A stretch of DNA of 64,000 bases, from assembly GCA_965261085.1 (NCBI GenBank), contig OZ253442.1, positions 384,001-448,000 of the forward strand, in the 5' to 3' direction. Shown here one piece after another: positions 1-10,175 of this stretch (its first letter is position 1; each line of letters begins with the position of its first letter). A program made the position numbers and the translations under genes. Source of the DNA: a bacterium (lineage in GTDB: Bacteria; UBA8248). A model generated the notes under the pieces. The model ran no database searches and was not told the origin of the DNA. It saw only the letters and a program-made list of their open reading frames with translations.

Positions 1-94
1 GGGAGTGCCGACGACACTCTTCATTGCGTTTACGTAACAAAAATTACATAATTCATTACCGTCTAAATTTTCCATATCAGGAAGGCCGAACTGT

Positions 95-787
95 ATGAAT
101 CAGACGAAATCTCCCGGTTCTGATGGGGGAAATGACATCAAGCTTATCGAATTGTCCGTAGTACTTGTAGCGAATTCCAACAATCCATCCATCATCAACC
201 CCGACTTCCTGCGCTACAACAAAATAGTGGACGACAGCTATGAGGTTCAAGACTCGCCCATTTCCACACCGGCATTTTCCCAAGTGATGTTCAAGAACGG
301 GATTACGGTAACATCGGCTCCCGATCGTGTGATATTCGCGCATGCTGGCACACTGAACAGGGACGATATCGTGTCTCCAGGAGTCACGAAGCGCTACTTA
401 GAGTGCGTCCCGCACGTACCCTACCGCGCCATCGGCATCAATCCGAAAGGATTTCAGAGCGCGCCTAGAAAAGAGCCGATCCCTGTTGTGAATATGCTGC
501 GCGACAAAGGCTCATGGGCATCGTTCGAGGACGTTACTCCAGAAGTGCAACTAAAAGCTATATATCGCTACAGCGAAAGGATCATCTCCTTGGATATTGC
601 TCGCGCGGATATAACGGAAAATGGTAAAAAAACATCCGGAACGCTGTATCAAGCGAATATCCATCGCGAATTAACCGAGACAAATACAGAGTTCCGCATA
701 AATCGCTTATCATCGGTTCTGGATTCGTGGAAGAACGATCTGGAAGATTTTTACAATTTGACGAACAAATTCTGCGGGGAGGGATGA
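95..787 (+). CDS. Hypothetical protein, TIGR04255-like (gene 1 of a coupled three-gene operon)
   Basis: 230-aa ORF with an AGGAAGG RBS. The N-terminal SVVLVANSNNPSIINPDFL pattern and C-terminal NIHRE resemble sporadically distributed TIGR04255-like proteins (from recall). Confidence 0.55.
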   Translation: MNQTKSPGSDGGNDIKLIELSVVLVANSNNPSIINPDFLRYNKIVDDSYEVQDSPISTPAFSQVMFKNGITVTSAPDRVIFAHAGTLNRDDIVSPGVTKRYLECVPHVPYRAIGINPKGFQSAPRKEPIPVVNMLRDKGSWASFEDVTPEVQLKAIYRYSERIISLDIARADITENGKKTSGTLYQANIHRELTETNTEFRINRLSSVLDSWKNDLEDFYNLTNKFCGEG

Positions 788-1488
788 TGTCCATTGCAAC
801 AGGTCCGGAGCCAATACCGGCTTCAGAGACGGCAGTCGACATTGAGAAACTAGTAGCCGATTTTGAGCAACAGGATGCTTATCCGAAATTTGGCGCGATG
901 TCGATTCATAGCGCACATGTGTTCGTCAGCCACACGCTTAGTTCTTCGAGTTGGCATTCACCAGTTCGATATGCGCGCTTCTCGGATGCCTTACAACCAG
1001 AAGTACAACCCGGAGAGATTTTATCCCATCTGATACCATCCTCTTCTCAGGGTCAACCGAAACCGAGTCTCTCCCCACTTGATTGGGAGTTGCTCGGCGA
1101 GTTTATCGCACATGGCGCAAAAGACTTCCCCGTCCAGTTTGCCGACGCTTTGCGCGATCTGGATGACGTCGTCGAAGAAGCCGAAGAAGAAGGCTTCCCT
1201 GTACCAAAAGAGATCGCTCTCGACAATGCGAAACGGTTGCTGAGGGAAATGTACACCATATCACCACGCCGTTTTGAGGTTTATCCCATGCCGGATGGCG
1301 AAGTCGCCATCGACGCGCCCGATGGCCGAGGAAGTTCCGTGCTGCTCTTGTGTGATTCGGATGGCGGCGCGTTGTGCCTTGTCAATATGAAAGGCAAGCA
1401 TCGTCGCGCCCGATATTCCACCACTGAAGCGCTTCCCGACGGTTTCATACGTGAAGCTATGGCCGAACTTGAACAGCAGAACAATTGA
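784..1488 (+). CDS. Hypothetical protein, low-complexity N-terminus plus acidic alpha/beta C-terminal domain (gene 2)
   Basis: ATG at 784 overlaps the stop of gene 1 (ATGA). C-terminal motif AKRLL...VYPMPDGEVAID. Confidence 0.65.
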   Translation: MMSIATGPEPIPASETAVDIEKLVADFEQQDAYPKFGAMSIHSAHVFVSHTLSSSSWHSPVRYARFSDALQPEVQPGEILSHLIPSSSQGQPKPSLSPLDWELLGEFIAHGAKDFPVQFADALRDLDDVVEEAEEEGFPVPKEIALDNAKRLLREMYTISPRRFEVYPMPDGEVAIDAPDGRGSSVLLLCDSDGGALCLVNMKGKHRRARYSTTEALPDGFIREAMAELEQQNN

Positions 1489-1928
1489 ACCCGGAGAAAG
1501 CACCCGAGAACATCGGGCAGGACGAGGAACTCGGACGCAGCGTATTCTCAAGACGCAGAGCGAGACGTGCACGACGTTCAAGAGTCCCAGCGGATGTGTT
1601 TTTGGAAAAAGAAGGCGAACCCAAGATTTCCGTTGACAGGCTGAGCGTAGCGCCGCCGGATGTAGCCACCGAGATAGCTGAGGCCGTGGCTGCTAAGCGT
1701 AACGCTAACGCTACCTTCTACGGATGGGCTTTTCTCACCGCTTCCCGAACACGGGAAAATGGGCGGGAAGCACTCGCTTCACCCCTAGAAAGTAACCCGT
1801 ATCACGCCGATATCGTATTGCCTCAATCTGCAGTTGAAGACCGAGAAGAGCAACAACGGCACGCGCTGGAACTGGCGGATGCTTCACGCTGGCGAGAAAG
1901 TCCGAGCTCCTCCCAAGAATCGTCTTGA
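1485..1928 (+). CDS. Hypothetical protein, possible ADP-ribosyltransferase/RES-like fold (gene 3)
   Basis: TTG start overlaps the stop of gene 2 (TTGA). Motifs LGR, VF, ISVDR and NPYHADI. Confidence 0.5.
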   Translation: MNPEKAPENIGQDEELGRSVFSRRRARRARRSRVPADVFLEKEGEPKISVDRLSVAPPDVATEIAEAVAAKRNANATFYGWAFLTASRTRENGREALASPLESNPYHADIVLPQSAVEDREEQQRHALELADASRWRESPSSSQESS

Positions 1929-2010
1929 ACCGATAACCAAAGAACGACCCCCGATTCCCCGTTTACGCTCTCCCGCATTATCCCGCACTTGCCTTCTTCG
2001 GCCTCACCTT

Positions 2011-3183
2011 TCACTCCCTGAACACGTTCACCTTTATGCTCCGCAGCGCCTCGCGCGGGCCGGCCCTGGTTTCGCGCATGATTCTCACCTCTCCCCGGTA
2101 TGCCCCGGGCGGCCAGCGCACCTTCGTCCGCTTGCCCACGGCCCGCCAGATACGGATACGGTGTCTTTTGAGCGATTCCTCTTTTTGGGCGAGCACCCCG
2201 CCGTCGGGACCCAGGAGGCGCAAGGATATAAAATCGCCCCGTCTCAGCCCTGCGACCTCGGCCCAGAAGACCAGCGCGTGTGATGAGGCCGGAAGCGACT
2301 TGGCGCCAAGCGCGCCCGTGCGGACCTCCTCCGTCGTGGGCAGATGATCCGCAAAACCTGCTTGGTAGGGAATGGCCGATAAGTAGCGCAGCTTCTCCAG
2401 AACCTCGCGCCGCCAGAGCGGCGTTTTTCCCAAGTCGCATTCCGCGCCACCCTCGACACCCACGAAGGGGTCGACGACCTTTCCTTTTTTTTCGACTGAT
2501 ATGTGCAGATGCGGAAATTCCGTGCGCCCCGAGAGGCCGACTGCGCCCAAGCGCTCACCCGCGCGCACCCGGCCACCCCTTCTGACCGAAACGCTCCCCC
2601 GCTTCATGTGGCAATACTGGGTATGCCAGCCCTCGCCGTGGTCGACGCGCACGCCGTTGCCGCAGTCTTTTCCCTTCAAGGCGGCGCGGCCGATAAGGCG
2701 GACATCCAAGTCGCTCATTCCGTCGCGTACGCCGACCACCCTGCCATCGGCGGCGGCGCGCACCTCGATTCGCTCGTGCAGTCTCCCGGCGTGAGCCAAG
2801 GCGATGTCGGTGCCCTTGTGCCCATCGTAGCTCATTCGCCCACAGGCGAAGTCGGCGTATCCCTTCCCGGGGTCTGAGTCGACGTAGTTGAAGACCCAGC
2901 AATCGACCCCCGGCTCGCAATCAATCGGCAGCGAAAGCGGGAGTGGCGAGCGCCCGAACGAACGCCCGGTGAGATCATGGGCGGCGATGGCCCCGGGCGC
3001 AGGCGCGCGCCTCGCGACCCGGCCACGGGAGAGGCGGCTCCGCGCGAGTTTCGGCTCCGCCTCCCGCCGCGACACGAACTCGGGCCCCTTGACCATGAGT
3101 AGATCGAATTCGAAAATCGCCCACACGGCAAGGATGGCGAAGAGGAAGGTCATGACCATGATGGCGAGCAGAATGCGGAGCAA
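2011..3183 (-). CDS. M23 family metallopeptidase with N-terminal membrane anchor
   Basis: YDGHKGTD, YCH and FPHLH zinc motifs; hydrophobic N-terminus. Confidence 0.9.
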   Translation of the reverse strand: MLRILLAIMVMTFLFAILAVWAIFEFDLLMVKGPEFVSRREAEPKLARSRLSRGRVARRAPAPGAIAAHDLTGRSFGRSPLPLSLPIDCEPGVDCWVFNYVDSDPGKGYADFACGRMSYDGHKGTDIALAHAGRLHERIEVRAAADGRVVGVRDGMSDLDVRLIGRAALKGKDCGNGVRVDHGEGWHTQYCHMKRGSVSVRRGGRVRAGERLGAVGLSGRTEFPHLHISVEKKGKVVDPFVGVEGGAECDLGKTPLWRREVLEKLRYLSAIPYQAGFADHLPTTEEVRTGALGAKSLPASSHALVFWAEVAGLRRGDFISLRLLGPDGGVLAQKEESLKRHRIRIWRAVGKRTKVRWPPGAYRGEVRIMRETRAGPREALRSIKVNVFRE

Positions 3184-3587
3184 GGCTCAGGCCTCCGTCG
3201 TCCGGGGACTCTTGATGTGCGCTTTCATGGGGGCGGTCTCTCATTGAAACCCAAGCCTGAAAGCGGGTGAGTCGGGTTTGAAGATAGCACCGCCGCCCGA
3301 ATCGCGGCAATCGGATTAGATGGATAATCAGGGGAGCGGGCGGTTCGCGAACCACGCTTCAGGAAGACGCGAACTCCCCCTCAGCGGGGAAGTTCGACCC
3401 TTCTCGGTCGGAATTGATTGCGCACTTGCCCGCATTCGCCGTCACGGGTTTTTCAGGACGATGGGGTATGCTCGGAAGGCCGCCCGTCGGCCTTCGGTTT
3501 TTCAGGTGGCGAAGGCGGCGCGGAGCGCTGGAGCCGGGTGGACGCTCCAGCGAAGTGAGGAACATGCAAAATGCAAAAAATAATATG

Positions 3588-3632
3588 TGAAAATATCGAT
3601 AAATTCACGGGGTTTTTCGATAAATAAATGAC
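3588..3632. repeat. Dispersed intergenic repeat, copy 1 (AT-rich, two TCGATAAAT units)
   Basis: TGAAAATATCGATAAATTCACGggGTTTTTCGATAAATaaATGAC matches 35480-35524 with 4 mismatches. Confidence 0.85.
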
Positions 3633-3774
3633 CATTTATTTTCTTCGGAAAAGACGCCGCCGCATTGCAGCGCAGGGGAATTCTGCCATGGACAGCTACT
3701 CCCTCGATAACGGGAAATGCACGGTTTTGCGGGGAGTTGCGCCCCCGCTCAAAGCGTCCACCCAGCCGCGCCTT

Positions 3775-4002
3775 CTAGGGTCCCGGATAGGCCTCGGGCG
3801 GTCTGGCGTCTTCTTCGGTTCTCTTTGATTTTATTCGCTTTCTGGCGACGAGAGGGTCATCCTTGAGTCGCGCGATCGGGTCCTCCTCATCGTCCCCGCG
3901 CCCGTAGGCGTTGCCCTTCTCGAACGCGAGCCGTCCGAAGAGACGGTTCAGGTTGTTGCGCGCGGTTTGCTCGTCTCCGGCGTCTTTTCTTCGTTTCTTC
4001 AT
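3775..4002 (-). CDS. Small charged hypothetical protein (75 aa)
   Basis: ATG with a strong AAGGGGAG RBS; fills the gap downstream of the MBL gene. Confidence 0.5.
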   Translation of the reverse strand: MKKRRKDAGDEQTARNNLNRLFGRLAFEKGNAYGRGDDEEDPIARLKDDPLVARKRIKSKRTEEDARPPEAYPGP

Positions 4003-4040
4003 GTTTTCTCTCCCCTTCTTTCACAAGCAAAGTCAATAGC

Positions 4041-5147
4041 TTACAGGATTCTCCACCTCTCGCCTACCGCCATCACCCTGACGCGGGCGGCATCCGCGCC
4101 CGTCTTCTCCATGTGCGTCCTGAGGACGCGGGGCGGATGGTCGATGGGTTCATCGGTCAGATCGAACGTACCCCAGTGCATGGGGATCATCCGGCGCGCG
4201 CCCAGATCGTGAAACGCCTGAAGCCCCTCGGCGGGGTTCATGTGAGGATAGCGCATCATCCACCTGGGCTCATACGCGCCGACCGAGAGCATGGCCACGT
4301 CGATGGAACCGAATTTGCGGCCAAACTCCTTAAACCCTTGAAAATAGCCGCTGTCCCCGCCGTGAAAATACCTGCGCGTACCGGTCTCGATGAGCCAGGC
4401 GCACCAAAGCGTGGAGTCCCTCGCCGTGCCGAACCGGTTCGACCAGTGCTGCGCGGGCAGGCAGGTAAGGCGCACACCGCCTTGCTCCGCGCTTCGCCAC
4501 CAGTCGAGTTCCACGGCGCGCCTGCCGAGTGATTCCACGAAAGCGCCCAGCCCCACGGGCACGAACCACGTGACGTCTTCGGGCAGGTTCTCTATCGTCC
4601 ATGAATCGAGATGATCGTAGTGGTTGTGGGAGATCGTCGCCACGGCACCCCCCGGTATTGAGGCCGCAGGCACGCCCGGGGGCTGATGGCGTCGATACAA
4701 CAAGGCCCTCGCGCCGAAGTGCGGATCCGTCAGGATAACGTTCGGTCCATCCTGAATGATGAAACCGCAATGCCCGACACACGTGATGGAAGGCTCCTCT
4801 CCCGCTTTCGAGAGATACGCGCCATCGTTGGGAACGACGGGAACATGGGGCGTTTCGCCGTTTTTGATCTCAGCGAATTCGTTTCGGTACAAAAACTTCC
4901 ATTTCAGCAGACTGACCCGCGAACCCGGATTCGGCCACCAGGGGTTGAACCAGGCTCCCGGCTCGCCATGCGGCCAATAAAGGGATTCCGCCTCGCGCGA
5001 GATGAGGCCCTGCGATTCAGCAGGAGGAGGCTGTGGCGCCTTGATGCCCAGACCCATTCGCGCGCATCCTCCCGCCAAGCCCAAGACGCCGAGGCCCGCC
5101 AAACCAGCGCCTTTGAGAAATTTCCGTCTGCCGATTTTCGGTTTCAT
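4041..5147 (-). CDS. MBL-fold metallo-hydrolase (NAPE-PLD/RomA-like), predicted Tat lipoprotein
   Basis: SHNHYDHLD, PAQHWS, GDSGY and PMHWGTF motifs; GRRKFL Tat motif and LAGGC lipobox. Confidence 0.9.
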   Translation of the reverse strand: MKPKIGRRKFLKGAGLAGLGVLGLAGGCARMGLGIKAPQPPPAESQGLISREAESLYWPHGEPGAWFNPWWPNPGSRVSLLKWKFLYRNEFAEIKNGETPHVPVVPNDGAYLSKAGEEPSITCVGHCGFIIQDGPNVILTDPHFGARALLYRRHQPPGVPAASIPGGAVATISHNHYDHLDSWTIENLPEDVTWFVPVGLGAFVESLGRRAVELDWWRSAEQGGVRLTCLPAQHWSNRFGTARDSTLWCAWLIETGTRRYFHGGDSGYFQGFKEFGRKFGSIDVAMLSVGAYEPRWMMRYPHMNPAEGLQAFHDLGARRMIPMHWGTFDLTDEPIDHPPRVLRTHMEKTGADAARVRVMAVGERWRIL

Positions 5148-5200
5148 CGCAACCCACGCGGTGGCTGATTCAGAATATCCCTTCCCTGCTGAGCGGGAAA

Positions 5201-6073
5201 TCAACCCAGGGACGCATACCACTCGGCAATCGCCCGACCCATCTCACCGGGTGAGTCCTCATGACAATAATGAAGCCCGGCAACCGTCGCCTCCGTCACG
5301 TTCGGCCAACCGCGAACCATTGTCCTATGTTCTCCCACGAGAACGGCTCCCGGTTCGCTGTTGATGAAAAGTTTCGGAACCGGGTGTTTCTCCAGCCACG
5401 CGTTGTTGCGCTCGATGATTTCGAGAACGTCCGCAGGCTCCCCCTCGATGGGAATCTCGCGCGGCCATGTGAGCGTGGGCCTTCTGTCCTCGCCGGGATT
5501 GCGGTAGGGCCTCCGGTATTCATCATGAATTTCATCCGAAACGTCGCGGATGACCATGGCGGGCAAAATCTTCTCCACAAAGAAGTTCTGCTCCAAAACG
5601 AGTTCCTCGCCCTCCTCGCTACGAAACCTTTTGAACAGGGCCTGAACGTCCGGCGGCCAGTGGCTCCACTCAAAATCGCCGACGACGCTCTGGCAGATCA
5701 CGACGCCCTTGAGTTTATCCTGTCTCTCCGACGCCCACGTGAAGCCGAGTTGCGCGCCCCAGTCGTGCGTGACGATGGTGACGTTCTCCTCCACTCCCAG
5801 GGCATCCATCAGCGCGTTCGTGAACGGCTGGTGATCGGCCAACCGGTACATGGAGCCGGCGAGTTTTGCGGAATCGCCCTGCCCGATATTGTCTACCGCG
5901 ATGCAGCGGCCCAGACCCTCGACGTGCGGAATCACGTTGCGCCACATATAAGACGAAGTGATGTTGCCGTGGAAAAAGACGATAGGGTCCCCCTCGCCCG
6001 CCTCCACGTAGGCCATCTTTTCGCCCAGAACTTCCGCGAATTTTTTCTGATACTTCATGCGAGGCTCTATCAT
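5201..6073 (-). CDS. Haloalkane dehalogenase-like alpha/beta hydrolase (HLD-II, LinB/DhaA type)
   Basis: HGNITSSYMWRN, HDWG, RRPTLTWPREIP and GLHYCHEDSP motifs; GAGGGAG RBS before ATG 6073. Confidence 0.88.
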   Translation of the reverse strand: MIEPRMKYQKKFAEVLGEKMAYVEAGEGDPIVFFHGNITSSYMWRNVIPHVEGLGRCIAVDNIGQGDSAKLAGSMYRLADHQPFTNALMDALGVEENVTIVTHDWGAQLGFTWASERQDKLKGVVICQSVVGDFEWSHWPPDVQALFKRFRSEEGEELVLEQNFFVEKILPAMVIRDVSDEIHDEYRRPYRNPGEDRRPTLTWPREIPIEGEPADVLEIIERNNAWLEKHPVPKLFINSEPGAVLVGEHRTMVRGWPNVTEATVAGLHYCHEDSPGEMGRAIAEWYASLG

Positions 6074-6101
6074 CACTCCCTCATGCCGTTCAGGTCCCAA
6101 T

Positions 6102-7154
6102 TCATTCACCAACCCGTAAGACCAGCTTGCCGCGCACGTGGCCCTCTTCCAAGAGCGTATGAGATGCCGCGATGTTCTCCGCGTTCATTTCTCCCATATC
6201 GGTGATCTGCGGCACCTTGATCTCGCCCATCTCCACCCAGTCGCGAATCTCCTCGAGCGCCTTCTTGTAGACGCCATAGTAAGCAGGACCGCCCCCGCGC
6301 ACGGGCGCACGCAGGAAGGTGCCGTGAAACGAAGCCGATTTGGTGAACAGCGGACCTTCCTGGGATGAGAAAAATTCATCGATGGGCGCTCCCGGTTCGG
6401 GTGCGATGGAGGAGATTCGCCCCCAGTAGTCCACGACTTCGCAGCAGAGTTTCTTCATCTCACGGCCCACGAAATCAAACGTGGCGGGAAAAAGACGATC
6501 TCCGTTCATCTCAACCGCCCGGCGGGACAACTCATCGAGCGAGAGTCCCGAATACCTCAACACGGCGACGGGGGCCGGAGCGATCAAATCCTCTATGTAT
6601 TTTGCGCTCCCATCGCTTCCCGCCGTCACGATGATGGGAGATGCACCGATGCGCGCAAGCATCTGAAGTCCCATGGTTCCCACGCCGCCCGAACCGCCCG
6701 CCACGAAAACCGCCTCTCCCGGCTCCACCCGCGCCTTCATCACCACCGCCTCATGGGCGGTCAGCGAGACGAGCGGCAAGGCGGCCGCTTGCCCGAAAGT
6801 GGCATTGGCCGGCTTTTTCACGACGAACGCCTGATGGATGCACACGAACTCCGCATAGCCGTCCCCGCCGCTGTCACCGAACCTCGGGAGATAGGCCATC
6901 ACCTCATCGCCGGGAGAGAATTCCGTAACGCTCGCGCCCACCGATTCGACCACGCCTGCGGTATCCCTGCCCAGGATGATGGGAACCGCGCCCTGGTTGC
7001 CGCCCCGTCTCGCCTTGAAATCGGTCGGGTTCAGGGAGACAGCCCTCGCCCGTATCTTCACCTCTTCAGACCCGGGCTCTCTCTCGGGCCAATCGGCATC
7101 CTCGAAATTCTCCACGCCACCGAACTCTTTCAATACGACCGCGTACATTTTCAC
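6102..7154 (-). CDS. MDR superfamily NADPH:quinone-oxidoreductase-like protein
   Basis: SLNPTD, ILGRDTAGVV, AGGSGGVG and GKLVL motifs. Confidence 0.9.
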   Translation of the reverse strand: MKMYAVVLKEFGGVENFEDADWPEREPGSEEVKIRARAVSLNPTDFKARRGGNQGAVPIILGRDTAGVVESVGASVTEFSPGDEVMAYLPRFGDSGGDGYAEFVCIHQAFVVKKPANATFGQAAALPLVSLTAHEAVVMKARVEPGEAVFVAGGSGGVGTMGLQMLARIGASPIIVTAGSDGSAKYIEDLIAPAPVAVLRYSGLSLDELSRRAVEMNGDRLFPATFDFVGREMKKLCCEVVDYWGRISSIAPEPGAPIDEFFSSQEGPLFTKSASFHGTFLRAPVRGGGPAYYGVYKKALEEIRDWVEMGEIKVPQITDMGEMNAENIAASHTLLEEGHVRGKLVLRVGE

Positions 7155-7160
7155 CCTCCG

Positions 7161-7958
7161 CTATACCATCCAGGCCCCGCCGGCCAAGACCAATCCCTGT
7201 CCCGTGACGTTTTTGCTCTCATCGCTCGCGAGATACACCGCCATGTGACCCACGTCGTCCGTCGTCTGCTCGCGTCCCAGGGGAACCGTCGCCTCGACGA
7301 ATTCATCGAACACCCGCCTCGCGGGCCTGTCCGTCTCCGCTCCTATGATAACGCCGTGGCCCTTCTCCCAGATATTCGTCCACAACAGACCCGGGTTAAT
7401 TGCGTTGACGTTCACGTTATAGGGGGCCATCTCCTTGGCGAGGCTCATGGTGAAGTTCAAGCAAGCCGCCTTGGACGCGGAATAATGCGGCACGTCCGCG
7501 TTCGCGCGTCTTGCGGCGAGCGAGGCCAGGTTGATGATTTTTCCGTATCTGCGCTCCCGCATATGGGCGGCAATAGCGCGGCACATCAGAAAAACACCCG
7601 TCGAGTTGACTGTAAAAACGGCGTTCCACTCCTCGAGCGTTATGTTGTCTACCGGGTTTCCCACGAGCGCCGCCCCTCTCCCGTGGCAATTCACCAGGAT
7701 GTCGACCCGCCCCATCCGATCGACCGCCGTCTGGGCGATGTTTTCCGCGTCTGTTTCGCTCGTCACGTCCGCCGCCAGGGCGAAATGCGCTCCCTCGCCG
7801 GCGTCGTCGAGTCCTCTTTGGGTAACCTCGTCATTGACGTCGACCACGCAAATTTGCGCACCCTCGCGGGAAAAAGCGCGGATGATGCCCCGGCCGATTC
7901 CGCCGCCACCTCCCGTGACGACCGCCGTTTTTCCTTCCAGACGCATTCTTATTTCCAT
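7161..7958 (-). CDS. SDR family oxidoreductase (tandem copy 2)
   Basis: TGGGGGIG and YSASK motifs. Confidence 0.92.
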   Translation of the reverse strand: MEIRMRLEGKTAVVTGGGGGIGRGIIRAFSREGAQICVVDVNDEVTQRGLDDAGEGAHFALAADVTSETDAENIAQTAVDRMGRVDILVNCHGRGAALVGNPVDNITLEEWNAVFTVNSTGVFLMCRAIAAHMRERRYGKIINLASLAARRANADVPHYSASKAACLNFTMSLAKEMAPYNVNVNAINPGLLWTNIWEKGHGVIIGAETDRPARRVFDEFVEATVPLGREQTTDDVGHMAVYLASDESKNVTGQGLVLAGGAWMV

Positions 7959-7964
7959 CCTCCG

Positions 7965-8756
7965 CTAGACCATCCAGGCCCCGCCCGCTAGGAGCAGGCC
8001 CTGCCCGGTGACGTTTCGGCTCTCATCGCTCGCGAGATAGACCGCCATGTGGCCCACGTCGTCCGGCGTCTGCTCTCGGCCCAGGGGAACCGCCGCCTCG
8101 ACGAACTCGTCGAACACCCTTCTCGCGGGCCTGTCCGTCTCCGCGCCGATGATGACGCCGTGGCCCTTCTCCCAAAGATTCGTCCACAACATGCCCGGGT
8201 TGATCGCGTTGACGTTCACGCTATAGGGAGCCATCTCCTTGGCGAGGCTCATGGTGAAGTTCATGCACGCCGCCTTGGACGCGCAGTAATGCGGCACGTT
8301 CTCGTTCGCGCGCCTTGCGGCGAGCGAGGCCAGGTTGATGATTTTCCCGTACTTCCGATCCCGCATATGGGCGGCGACCGCCCGGCACATCAAAAACACG
8401 CCCGTCGAATTCACATTAAAAACGGCGTTCCACTCCTCGAGCGTTATGTTGTCGATGGGGTTTCCCATGAGCGCCGACGGCCTTCCGTGGCAATTCACCA
8501 GAATATCGACCTGCCCCATCCGCTCGATAGCCGTCTGTACGACGTTTTCCGCGTCCGTCTCGCTCGTCACGTCCGCCGCCAGGGCGAAATGCGCCCCCTC
8601 GCCGGCGTCACCGAGTCCTTGCTTGGTTACCTCGTCATTGACGTCGACCACGCAAATTTGCGCGCCCTCGCGCGCGAAAGCGCGGATGATGCCTCTGCCG
8701 ATTCCGCCGCCGCCGCCCGTGACAACCGCTTTTTTCCCTTCTAATCGCATTCGCAC
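7965..8756 (-). CDS. SDR family oxidoreductase (tandem copy 1)
   Basis: TGGGGGIG and YCASK motifs; near-identical to the neighbouring SDR. Confidence 0.92.
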   Translation of the reverse strand: MRMRLEGKKAVVTGGGGGIGRGIIRAFAREGAQICVVDVNDEVTKQGLGDAGEGAHFALAADVTSETDAENVVQTAIERMGQVDILVNCHGRPSALMGNPIDNITLEEWNAVFNVNSTGVFLMCRAVAAHMRDRKYGKIINLASLAARRANENVPHYCASKAACMNFTMSLAKEMAPYSVNVNAINPGMLWTNLWEKGHGVIIGAETDRPARRVFDEFVEAAVPLGREQTPDDVGHMAVYLASDESRNVTGQGLLLAGGAWMV

Positions 8757-9029
8757 CCCTCCTGAAAGAAAACTTCATGTATCCATCGGACAAAAAACCG
8801 CTCACGCACATCTCGAGGCGGGACATCGGCCCCCGTTCCTGAAGCGATATTTTTCTCGATTCTAACAAGAATACCGCGGGGTGAATATCTCGAACCCGAA
8901 TCCCTGAAATTCACCCCTCGGGGAGTTTCCCCCGCATGGGGAGAATGGTATTCTCCCCCCGTTCCAAAACCCTTTGCACAACAATCGCGGACGCCGCAAG
9001 GACGTCCCTCAAAACGACAGGAGCATGAA

Positions 9030-9464
9030 ATGTCCCTCATTAAAATGGCGAAAGAATCCATCGACGTCGGCATCGTGGTGAAAGACCTCGACGTCGCCGA
9101 GAAATTCTACGGCGGCGTGCTGGGACTCCCGATCGTGCGCGAAGTCGAGATTACGGCGGATAAGGCCAAACAGGCCGGCTGCGCGTCGGGCAGATTCGAG
9201 TTCAAGGCGTTTCAGGCCGGCGAGGTGCAACTCAAGGTCGTTCAGGCGGATTCTGACCCGCCCTCCGGCGGCGGAATCGTGGATGCATCGACCGGATTCC
9301 GCTACCTGACGTTCACCGTCGAGAGCGTACAGGAAGCCCACGACGCCCTGGCGGCGGCGGGTGCGAAGATAATGGGCGAAATCACAGAAGTCGTGCCGGG
9401 CCGGTTCATCATCTTTTTCCAGGACCCTGACGGAAACATGCTGGAATGCGTCGGCCCCAGATAA
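9030..9464 (+). CDS. VOC/glyoxalase family protein
   Basis: VGIVVKDL...FYGGVLGL and FFQDPDGNMLE motifs. Confidence 0.9.
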   Translation: MSLIKMAKESIDVGIVVKDLDVAEKFYGGVLGLPIVREVEITADKAKQAGCASGRFEFKAFQAGEVQLKVVQADSDPPSGGGIVDASTGFRYLTFTVESVQEAHDALAAAGAKIMGEITEVVPGRFIIFFQDPDGNMLECVGPR

Positions 9465-9554
9465 GTTTGATGCGAGCGGGCATTCCGCTCACCCTGAAAA
9501 AAGGCGCAGGCGCTTCCCGGAACAAAAGCCCTGCCGTGTAGCGGGAGTATCGAG

Positions 9555-10175
9555 ATGTACGGGTTTCTCCAGGTGTATCTGGTGGAATTCGCCTATGGCG
9601 GGGTATTTCTGATCCTCGTGCTTTGCGGTCTTGGCCTGCCCGTCCCCGAAGACATCCCCATCATCATCTCGGGCTATCTCGTGCATCTGGGCACCATGGA
9701 TTTCTGGCCCGCGCTCACCGTGAATCTGCTGGGCATCATGCTCGGCGACGTGATGATTTACGGCTTCGGCTACTGGATGGGCCCGAAAGCCCTGGAACAT
9801 CGCATCCTTCGCCCCGTCATGACGCCGGACCGGATGGAGAAAGTCCACGACTTGTTCGACCATCACGGCAGGAAGGCCATCTTCTTCGGCCGCTTCGTCG
9901 CGGGTTTGCGCGCGCCGCTGTTTCTCGCGGCGGGAATCACCCGGCTTCCCCTTCGCATATTCTTCGGCATGGACCTGACCGCGGCGCTCCTGAGCGTGCC
10001 GCTGATGCTCGCGGCGGCTTGGTATTTCGGGGATCACATCGACGATTTACGCAGGATGGTGGGAACGGGCAAAGCCATCATCATTCTCGCCCTGGGAGCC
10101 GGAGCCGCCTGGATGACGGCGAAATATCTGTGGCGAAAATGGAGGTCGAAAGACTCCCGGCCCGCCTCATCCTGA
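9555..10175 (+). CDS. DedA family membrane protein
   Basis: GLPVPED, LGD and GRFVAGLR motifs. Confidence 0.92.
   Translation: MYGFLQVYLVEFAYGGVFLILVLCGLGLPVPEDIPIIISGYLVHLGTMDFWPALTVNLLGIMLGDVMIYGFGYWMGPKALEHRILRPVMTPDRMEKVHDLFDHHGRKAIFFGRFVAGLRAPLFLAAGITRLPLRIFFGMDLTAALLSVPLMLAAAWYFGDHIDDLRRMVGTGKAIIILALGAGAAWMTAKYLWRKWRSKDSRPASS

Follow-up and report, generated by a model that had tools for sequence, protein, structure and literature searches.

What is the three-gene operon that opens this stretch of bacterial DNA, and do its parts belong to a system that already has a name? The stretch, referred to here as the window, comprises 64,000 nucleotides of contig OZ253442.1 (positions 384,001 to 448,000 of the forward strand), and the operon occupies positions 95-1928 on the plus strand. 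It consists of gene 1 (95-787, 230 residues, ATG start), gene 2 (784-1488, 234 residues, ATG start) and gene 3 (1485-1928, 147 residues, TTG start without a Shine-Dalgarno sequence), the last being the putative effector or toxin. An earlier, sequence-only reading had taken gene 3 for an NAD-consuming toxin of the ART or RES type, gene 2 for its labile antitoxin and gene 1 for a TIGR04255-like chaperone or sensor, and had proposed neighborhood comparison, a fold search and complex modelling as checks. Our analysis favors, with a confidence somewhat better than even, a reading in which the locus represents, in its three-gene form, an extensive cassette that has no name and has spread horizontally. 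The core of this cassette would be a toxin-antitoxin (TA)-like pair, made up of gene 3 and the C-terminal domain of gene 2 (g2C, approximately residues 110-234, positions 1111-1488), to which gene 1 is an optional addition.

Three coupled genes without a named family

The three open reading frames (ORFs) are co-directional, and each stop codon shares four bases with the next start codon. These junctions can be read directly in the sequence as a stop/start overlap, ATGA, between genes 1 and 2 (784-787) and as a start/stop overlap, TTGA, between genes 2 and 3 (1485-1488), the latter an arrangement for translational coupling. Everything that the sequence-only reading had observed is confirmed, the three ORFs and both junctions here and the compositional features below.

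Searches of Pfam, NCBIfam and PADLOC with genes 1, 2 and 3 returned zero matches at an expectation value (E) of 1 or below, and PHROGs gave nothing better than E 0.18 for the three proteins. Word searches nevertheless recovered many homologues, with 139 accepted from 395 candidates for gene 3, 173 from 357 for gene 1 and 569 from 1572 for gene 2. A profile search extended the gene 3 family to 910 clusters at 50% identity (E<=1e-3; 515 of them at E<=1e-10), where nearly all of the 150 matches listed are 100-190 residues long. Source names for the homologues are few and all read 'hypothetical protein', and an Atlas search with gene 3 found unnamed clusters only. Among the papers listed for toxin-antitoxin systems, sponge symbionts and defense, titles and abstract openings contain no description of these families. 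By these sequence comparisons all three genes are conserved families without a name, which agrees with the earlier description of a coupled operon of uncharacterized genes matching no named system.

A two-gene core conserved across bacterial groups

To define the conserved unit, a scan of one genome per species was used, which identified 130 gene 3 relatives, and 80 loci were kept. Hidden Markov models (HMMs) built from the homologues were then run over every ORF of these loci. Inspection of the gene order reveals a g2C domain directly upstream of the gene 3 homologue at 79 of the 80 loci, with gene 1 upstream of the pair at 34. The exception, L047 (5813-6426), holds an apparently intact gene 3 beside a 59-residue ORF that ends in the tail of g2C, which points to a cassette in decay or to a frameshift introduced by assembly. 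Across the 80 loci, the module has no further conserved neighbor; the next-largest 'clusters' are antisense shadow ORFs lying over the module itself. Gene order thus recurs, but the trio that the sequence-only reading had treated as the unit gives way to a pair: in the loci compared, the basic unit is the two-gene core of g2C and gene 3, and gene 1 is an accessory.

Coupling of the two core genes recurs as well. Genes 2 and 3 share the four-base overlap in 41 of 80 cases, starting with GTG in 17, TTG in 16 and ATG in 8, and genes 1 and 2 share the same overlap at 20 of the 34 loci that have gene 1. Since the overlapping starts are mostly GTG or TTG (33 of 41), the weak TTG start of gene 3 in the window is the norm for its family.

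All 80 loci come from records of metagenome-assembled genomes (MAGs), labelled with at least 12 phylum-level groups. Chloroflexota/Dehalococcoidia account for 26 of the 80, as counted from record labels. The other groups include Gamma- and Alphaproteobacteria, Nitrospirales, Acidobacteriota, Latescibacterota, Binatia, Entotheonella/Tectimicrobiota, Rhodothermales, Thermodesulfobacteriota, Spirochaetia and Bdellovibrionales.

Predicted binding of gene 3 by the C-terminal domain of gene 2

Complex prediction was performed with g2C residues 110-234 (44-row alignment) and gene 3 (34-row alignment) as input. Three runs gave interface scores (ipSAE) of 0.90, 0.90 and 0.89, compared with 0.01 for the best of three controls. 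The mark used to interpret the score is reached by 58 of 80 solved complexes and by 2 of 110 mismatched pairs, a benchmark that is only approximate here, custom alignments having been used. At least 94% of contacts are common to the runs, and the predicted local distance difference test (pLDDT) value of the partner is at least 88. The PDB contains no sequence relative of either g2C or gene 3, which makes it improbable that the pass reflects memory of a solved complex.

Inspection of the predicted interface indicates that g2C contributes alternate residues between 163 and 210, a spacing that suggests one face of a beta-sheet. Gene 3 contributes residues 22-43, which include a helix with the sequence RRRARRARRSR, together with residues 91-92 and the C-terminal helix 120-133. 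The prediction supports, rather than shows, the binding of gene 3 by g2C.

Fusion of g2C to a known antitoxin

Additional information about the role of g2C is provided by loci where the domain has been joined to other proteins. In L052 (3874-6414), a DarT gene (Pfam PF14487, E 1e-62) is followed by a single 483-residue ORF and then by a gene 3 homologue. The N-terminal part of this ORF is a macro domain (PDB 5m3i, E 3e-53; Pfam Macro, E 3e-25), its middle part, the DarT-binding region, matches 7yk3_B, a 'DNA ADP-ribosyl glycohydrolase' (E 7e-21), and its remainder is g2C, such that the whole reads as a DarG::g2C fusion. L057 (3876-6354) carries a decayed version with a frameshifted DarT and a split fusion, and L064 (4884-6354) has lost DarT and the macro domain and kept the rest. 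All three loci belong to Dehalococcoidia and therefore probably descend from a single event. As the in-frame partner is an antitoxin, the fusion supports g2C as the neutralizer and gene 3 as the effector; the one polypeptide of L052 would then serve two effectors.

Copy number also varies. L080 carries three tandem g2C-gene 3 pairs (5567-8483), L021 carries the order g2C-gene 3-g2C (5546-6875) and L046 has a second, degenerate copy (1204-1851). The g2C domain is also found as a stand-alone protein of 128-137 residues, behind varied N-terminal parts, and duplicated inside single proteins (P0251 and L040). Given its adjacency to gene 3 at 79 of 80 loci, the predicted complex and the DarG fusions in three loci, g2C behaves like the antitoxin of gene 3, which upholds the antitoxin role earlier assigned to gene 2 and places it in the C-terminal domain. 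The family is probably a new TA-like family with an optional third component, where toxicity is a prediction.

Two further arrangements of g2C were seen. In L026 (4336-5967), a 543-residue ORF has approximately seven TPR repeats fused upstream of g2C, and the locus has no gene 1; the TPR part may substitute for gene 1 as a different sensor or adaptor. P0285 and P0299 begin with ~66 residues of a truncated HepT-like N-terminus that shares 89% identity with the HepT-like ORF of L032 and is joined to g2C, and this looks like the product of a rearrangement between neighboring TA cassettes.

Conserved residues and predicted fold of gene 3

The gene 3 model (pLDDT 91.0, predicted template modelling score 0.84) contains six strands that alternate with helices. 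Among 70 diverse homologues, S49, W81 and H107 are invariant, and G17, R18, F39, D51, R52, G80, R94, P100, N104 and I110 are conserved in at least 90%. The conserved polar residues are R18, S49, D51, R52, W81, R94, N104 and H107. The spaced pattern R...F...SVD...NPYHADI, on which the ART/RES assignment had been built, is real and conserved across these 70 homologues.

The assignment itself was not supported. Searching the gene 3 model against PDB and BFVD with Foldseek produced no match at E<=1e-3 (best PDB E 0.16), a PDB profile search produced none at E<=10, and Pfam searches with 70 gene 3 relatives produced single-member noise (best E 0.012) and neither a RES nor an ART family. Gene 3 thus matches nothing significantly by sequence, profile or structure, and these searches do not establish an ART/RES fold for it.

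In ART folds, an R-S-E triad (H-Y-E in another clade) is distributed over strands 1, 2 and 5, and the tRNA 2'-phosphotransferases (Tpt1/KptA) are an NAD-using branch of the ART superfamily. In the gene 3 model, the strand formed by residues 15-20 carries R18, that of residues 47-52 carries S49 and that of residues 107-111 carries H107 and D109 with no Glu. These strand positions, predicted strands 1, 2 and 5, correspond to those of the triad and leave the ART fold as a minority possibility for gene 3. A size of ~140-180 residues and six strands alternating with helices are likewise shared with ART, Tpt1/KptA and RES toxins, and two Tpt1/KptA enzymes stand among the top 20 listed PDB matches from Foldseek, neither of them significant (6e3a: E 0.40, TMq 0.35, probability 0.30; 1wfx: E 0.99, TMq 0.42, probability 0.33).

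The fuller proposal, that gene 3 is an NAD-using toxin of the ART/RES type, gene 2 a labile antitoxin and gene 1 a chaperone or sensor within a CmdTAC-like tripartite anti-phage system, draws on these likenesses, on an operon logic that fits and on the fusion of g2C in three loci to DarG, an antitoxin that removes ADP-ribose. We regard it as unlikely. Beyond the empty Pfam, PDB and Foldseek searches, a profile comparison (hhalign) of gene 3 with the DarT of L052 has a probability of 0.3%, and strand 5 carries His/Asp where the catalytic Glu would be. The DarG portion in L052 adjoins its own DarT, so the fusion can be explained without gene 3 being an ART. The RES branch fares no better, since RES toxins (Xre-RES, MbcT) have an Xre/COG5642-type partner, whereas no RES match exists in gene 3 or 70 relatives and gene 2 lacks a helix-turn-helix (HTH) domain.

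Gene 1 and the N-terminal extension of gene 2

The gene 1 model (pLDDT 87.8) is made of two beta-beta-beta-beta-alpha repeats. Foldseek returned 16 PDB matches at E<=1e-3, S-adenosylmethionine decarboxylase (AdoMetDC) and TATA-binding protein (TBP), with TMq values of 0.28-0.37; among the matches listed, mainly AdoMetDC, TBP and McsB, there is no SecB. A PDB profile search gave a best E of 0.8. At best, then, the model indicates a TBP-like two-repeat alpha/beta fold for gene 1 and not a SecB-like one. The label 'TIGR04255-like' was not supported: NCBIfam contained no TIGR04255 match for gene 1, 47 homologues or 7 cyanobacterial relatives (the presence of that model in the library copy is unconfirmed), and a full-text literature search returned no mention of the name. 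Its only trace is an automatic one, in that the third-nearest Atlas cluster (score 0.95), of similar length at 235 residues, is labelled 'putative TIGR04255 family protein'.

What connects gene 1 to the pair is the N-terminal extension of gene 2 (approximately residues 1-109, positions 784-1110), a Ser/Pro-rich, fast-evolving and probably disordered segment. Where gene 1 is present, gene 2 is at least 209 residues long at all 34 loci (median 232), and where gene 1 is absent the median is 149. In 11 of 12 close pairs, none of the other three segments is as poorly conserved as the extension; L001, for example, shares with the window 76% identity in gene 1, 58% in the extension, 87% in g2C and 80% in gene 3. 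Gene 1 thus behaves as an accessory tied to the gene 2 extension, a relation reminiscent of toxin-antitoxin-chaperone systems, but it is not SecB-like. The CmdTAC-like proposal loses ground for the same reason, as well as from the position of the extension at the N-terminus (the TAC element being described on the antitoxin) and from the lack of any PADLOC match.

Composition of gene 2 agrees with the earlier description of a Ser/Pro-rich N-terminal half and an acidic C-terminal domain. Residues 1-109 are 25.7% Ser+Pro, and the C-terminal half has an isoelectric point (pI) of 4.6 with 25 D+E against 15 K+R (median pI in the g2C family, 4.8). Across loci, the extensions contain 11.9% Ser and 2.3% Trp, and no consistent aromatic motif was seen in them.

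Relatives of gene 1 occur on plasmids in 23 records, all cyanobacterial and at 25-36% identity. The closest (36%) lies on a plasmid of Picosynechococcus sp. PCC 8807 (NZ_CP016487.1; L081, 3492-5242), where it heads a trio of 226, 197 and 146 residues located between type I restriction hsdR and hsdS genes and beside HepT/nucleotidyltransferase and VapC genes. Proteins 2 and 3 of this trio each have an hhalign probability of 0.3% with g2C and gene 3; in HMM scoring, the gene 3 comparison gives 3.5 bits, which 1 of 500 shuffles reaches, and the gene 2 comparison 1.4 bits, which 13 of 500 reach. A tblastn search found no further plasmid relatives that could have served for building a profile. The likeness to g2C and gene 3 is marginal, and distant homology is suggestive only. 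In plasmids of Anabaena, Calothrix, Gloeothece and Leptolyngbya (L084-L087), gene 1 relatives of 241-247 residues (27-31% identity) stand just upstream of giant genes of 18-34 kb annotated with CARDB domains, Ig domains or S8/S53 peptidases. As four of the six other plasmid regions examined have this arrangement, the gene 1 family is not tied to the pair.

Genomic surroundings

To characterize the surroundings of the cassette, 138 of 156 chosen adjacent ORFs were scanned, the 18 longer than 650 residues having been left out. By our reading of the resulting table, approximately 20 of the 138 are of TA, defense or mobile type. Examples include HsdM, HipA, Fic (twice), TacA, a Pycsar-type TIR protein and an AbiEii-type AAA protein, as well as an integrase arm, a DDE transposase and a type IV secretion system coupling protein. 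In L032 (537-8273), the trio directly follows hsdR and hsdM on the same strand, with a HepT-like ORF coming next. An ABC-transporter operon is interrupted in L042 and L053, where the module separates the binding-protein gene from the permease gene. The insertion site is kept within lineages, with AIR carboxylase and malate/lactate dehydrogenase as neighbors in Nitrospirales and DegT and MR_MLE in Chloroflexota.

Further features of L032 were noted by eye. Beyond its HepT-like ORF lie what we take to be a small antitoxin-like ORF and a nucleotidyltransferase partner. The ORF at 7794-8273, which has no PDB match, is probably an HsdS start. A 455-residue ORF at 8296-9663 has a transposase-like appearance.

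Evidence against a toxin-antitoxin pair

Several observations weigh against the reading of g2C and gene 3 as a TA-like pair with gene 1 as its accessory. The first concerns the predicted interface, where the named gene 3 contacts exclude the conserved polar cluster R18, S49, D51, R52 and H107, such that neutralization by simple occlusion of an active site is not indicated. The second concerns g2C as an antitoxin. Scanning gene 2 and 15 relatives revealed no HTH, ribbon-helix-helix (RHH), AbrB or other recognizable DNA-binding domain, and g2C is slightly more conserved than gene 3, with a median identity to the window of 60.5% compared with 56.2% and the higher value at 55 of 74 loci, which is unusual for an antitoxin. 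The third concerns gene 1, given that the N-terminal extensions are unalignable between loci and offer no conserved motif for gene 1 recognition. A gene 2 of at least 209 residues also occurs without gene 1 at 14 of 45 loci, where lengths are those of maximal ORFs (first start codon after a stop) and some gene 2 lengths are overestimated. The sample itself is a further consideration: all 80 loci were selected through gene 3, so any pairing of g2C or gene 1 with other partners lies outside it, the cyanobacterial plasmid relatives of gene 1 excepted. Finally, the majority of adjacent ORFs are varied housekeeping genes, the plasmid collection yielded no tblastn match for gene 3 or g2C, and the phage collection yielded none for gene 3.

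The last of these observations speak for a stable two-subunit regulatory or metabolic complex, one that perhaps serves a host-associated lifestyle and has spread horizontally among co-resident bacteria. Such a complex would also be in keeping with the strong conservation of both partners, with insertion sites kept within lineages and with a sample in which no record is named as a cultured isolate. We nonetheless judge it quite unlikely. No metabolic neighbors are co-conserved with the pair, the weak and coupled start of gene 3 suits a protein that is kept scarce, and DarG fusion, tandem triplication and neighbors such as HepT/MNT, HipA, Fic, TacA, TIR and restriction genes are typical of TA and defense cassettes.

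Reversed polarity, in which g2C is the active or toxic partner and gene 3 its inhibitor or immunity protein, would account for the greater conservation of g2C, for its many invariant charged residues and nearly invariant C190, C198 and H206, and for its occurrence alone or with many different N-terminal additions, yet it is the least probable of the readings and a very unlikely one, as the in-frame fusion partner of g2C is an antitoxin and not a toxin, surplus g2C without gene 3 (L021; duplicated in P0251 and L040) is of the kind tolerated for neutralizers, g2C is upstream and better translated while gene 3 starts weakly, the alternating conserved residues of g2C make up the predicted binding face, and the intact gene 3 with a g2C remnant in L047 counts equally against both polarities or is an assembly error.

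The invariant charged and Tyr residues of g2C are E132, R162, E165, D171, E173, D177, R207, R208, Y211 and D219. The segment that holds C190, C198 and H206 (residues 186-209, window positions 1339-1410) reads VLLLCDSDGGALCLVNMKGKHRRA, and it aligned non-significantly with a zinc-binding segment of the TRIM21 B-box (whole-sequence E 0.12); metal binding by g2C is possible on this basis. The best PDB profile matches of g2C (E 0.1-0.12), a designed miniprotein and the TRIM21 B-box stretch, were rejected as chance and pattern likeness.

Proposed mechanism

The in silico support for the reading that we favor, a TA-like pair with an optional third gene, comes from the order, coupling and co-occurrence of the genes, from the predicted binding and from the fusion of g2C to a known antitoxin. 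The mechanism that this reading suggests is as follows. Gene 3 would be the effector, a compact alpha/beta protein of ~140 residues in which Arg, Ser, Asp, Trp, Asn and His residues form a conserved cluster, and its output would be limited by a weak start codon overlapping the gene 2 stop. The sheet face of g2C would pack on the Arg-rich helix (22-43) and the C-terminal helix (120-133) of gene 3 and thereby keep it inactive. Gene 1, we infer, would act through the gene 2 extension as a stabilizer or as a sensor of a trigger, in a manner akin to toxin-antitoxin-chaperone (TAC) systems, and loss of its hold would free gene 3. As to the target of gene 3, we lean toward a nucleic acid or nucleotide substrate. 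Toxicity, the direction of neutralization, the gene 3 target and the role of gene 1 are inferred.

A more ambitious version can be drawn from the same material. Gene 3 would be a new toxin fold, or an ART branch past current detection, g2C a portable neutralizer and gene 1 a guardian of a new, non-SecB kind, which controls the pair by way of a hypervariable 'bait' at the N-terminus of the antitoxin. An arms race with phage or other triggers would lie behind the rapid turnover of the bait, and the whole would constitute a new tripartite defense or addiction system that has reached more than a dozen phyla of bacteria, uncultured and for the most part host-associated. We consider this version improbable as a whole.

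Comparison with known systems

The cassette resembles type II TA systems in having two small co-directional genes with the putative neutralizer upstream, a four-base coupling and a weak downstream start. A predicted tight heterodimer, patchy phyletic spread, tandem copies and a location between unrelated genes or within restriction/TA clusters are further points of likeness. In contrast to type II TA systems, gene 3 and g2C both fall outside the named toxin and antitoxin families; the putative antitoxin is also better conserved than the putative toxin and has no DNA-binding domain, be it HTH, RHH or another.

For TAC systems (HigBAC, CmdTAC), two reports (PMC11618068; bioRxiv 10.1101/2024.02.24.581848) describe SecB-like chaperones that recognize a chaperone-addiction element. 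The likeness lies in a third gene that goes together with an extra, poorly conserved antitoxin segment (34 of 34 loci). The differences are that gene 1 stands first in the operon and has a model weakly like TBP and AdoMetDC instead of SecB, that the extension is at the antitoxin N-terminus and has no conserved motif, that gene 3 is no recognizable ART or HigB, and that none of the three proteins has a PADLOC match, CmdT, CmdA and CmdC models included.

DarTG, a DNA ADP-ribosyltransferase toxin paired with a macrodomain antitoxin, is approached most closely in L052, where g2C forms the C-terminal part of a DarG-like protein with DarT upstream and gene 3 downstream. Unlike DarTG, the window locus has neither a macro domain nor DarT, gene 3 has no profile similarity to DarT, and only three of the 80 loci, all related and from Dehalococcoidia, carry the fusion. 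We rate the cassette as an assembly of new parts that follows a TA-like logic and has a non-SecB third component.

If confirmed, the cassette would be a large TA-like family (910 effector clusters at 50% identity) that current annotation and defense-finding libraries have missed entirely. Its effector fold matches nothing solved, and its neutralizer domain can be attached to other antitoxins, as the DarG fusion illustrates. The optional gene 1 would, on the same condition, offer a second way of building, without SecB, the chaperone-gated design for which sensing of phage proteins was recently shown, and the cassette would help account for some of the genes that lack annotation in MAGs of many phyla.

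Leader and flanks of the module in the window

The AT-rich leader upstream of gene 1 (1-94, plus strand), a probable promoter region, is truncated at the window edge. Its GC content is 40.4%, compared with 51.8% for the three-gene module, 58.3% for the whole window and 65.1% for the adjoining M23 peptidase gene (2011-3183, identified by a Pfam match). The AT-rich leader and the lower GC content of the module relative to the M23 gene had both been remarked upon in the sequence-only reading. Purine-rich, Shine-Dalgarno-like runs precede genes 1 and 2, with AGGAAGG before the ATG at 95. A consensus scan of positions 1-2300 for promoters and terminators gave no promoter, only 94 bases 5' of gene 1 being present in the window. 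HMM searches detected the module only once in the window, and Rfam (gathering score) and tRNA scans of the whole 64 kb were empty, with neither tRNA nor rRNA nor any other Rfam family.

In L001, the closest relative, synteny extends to both sides of the module, with 81% identity over the module and 85% over window positions 3420-7762. Window positions 1-94 align with a 125-base intergenic stretch 5' of gene 1 in L001. Comparison of window 1916-3420 with L001 6428-8079 reveals that a gene with HTH and M78 (ImmA/IrrE-type) domains in L001 replaces the M23 peptidase gene of the window. Upstream of its module, L001 encodes a 1237-residue ankyrin-repeat protein.

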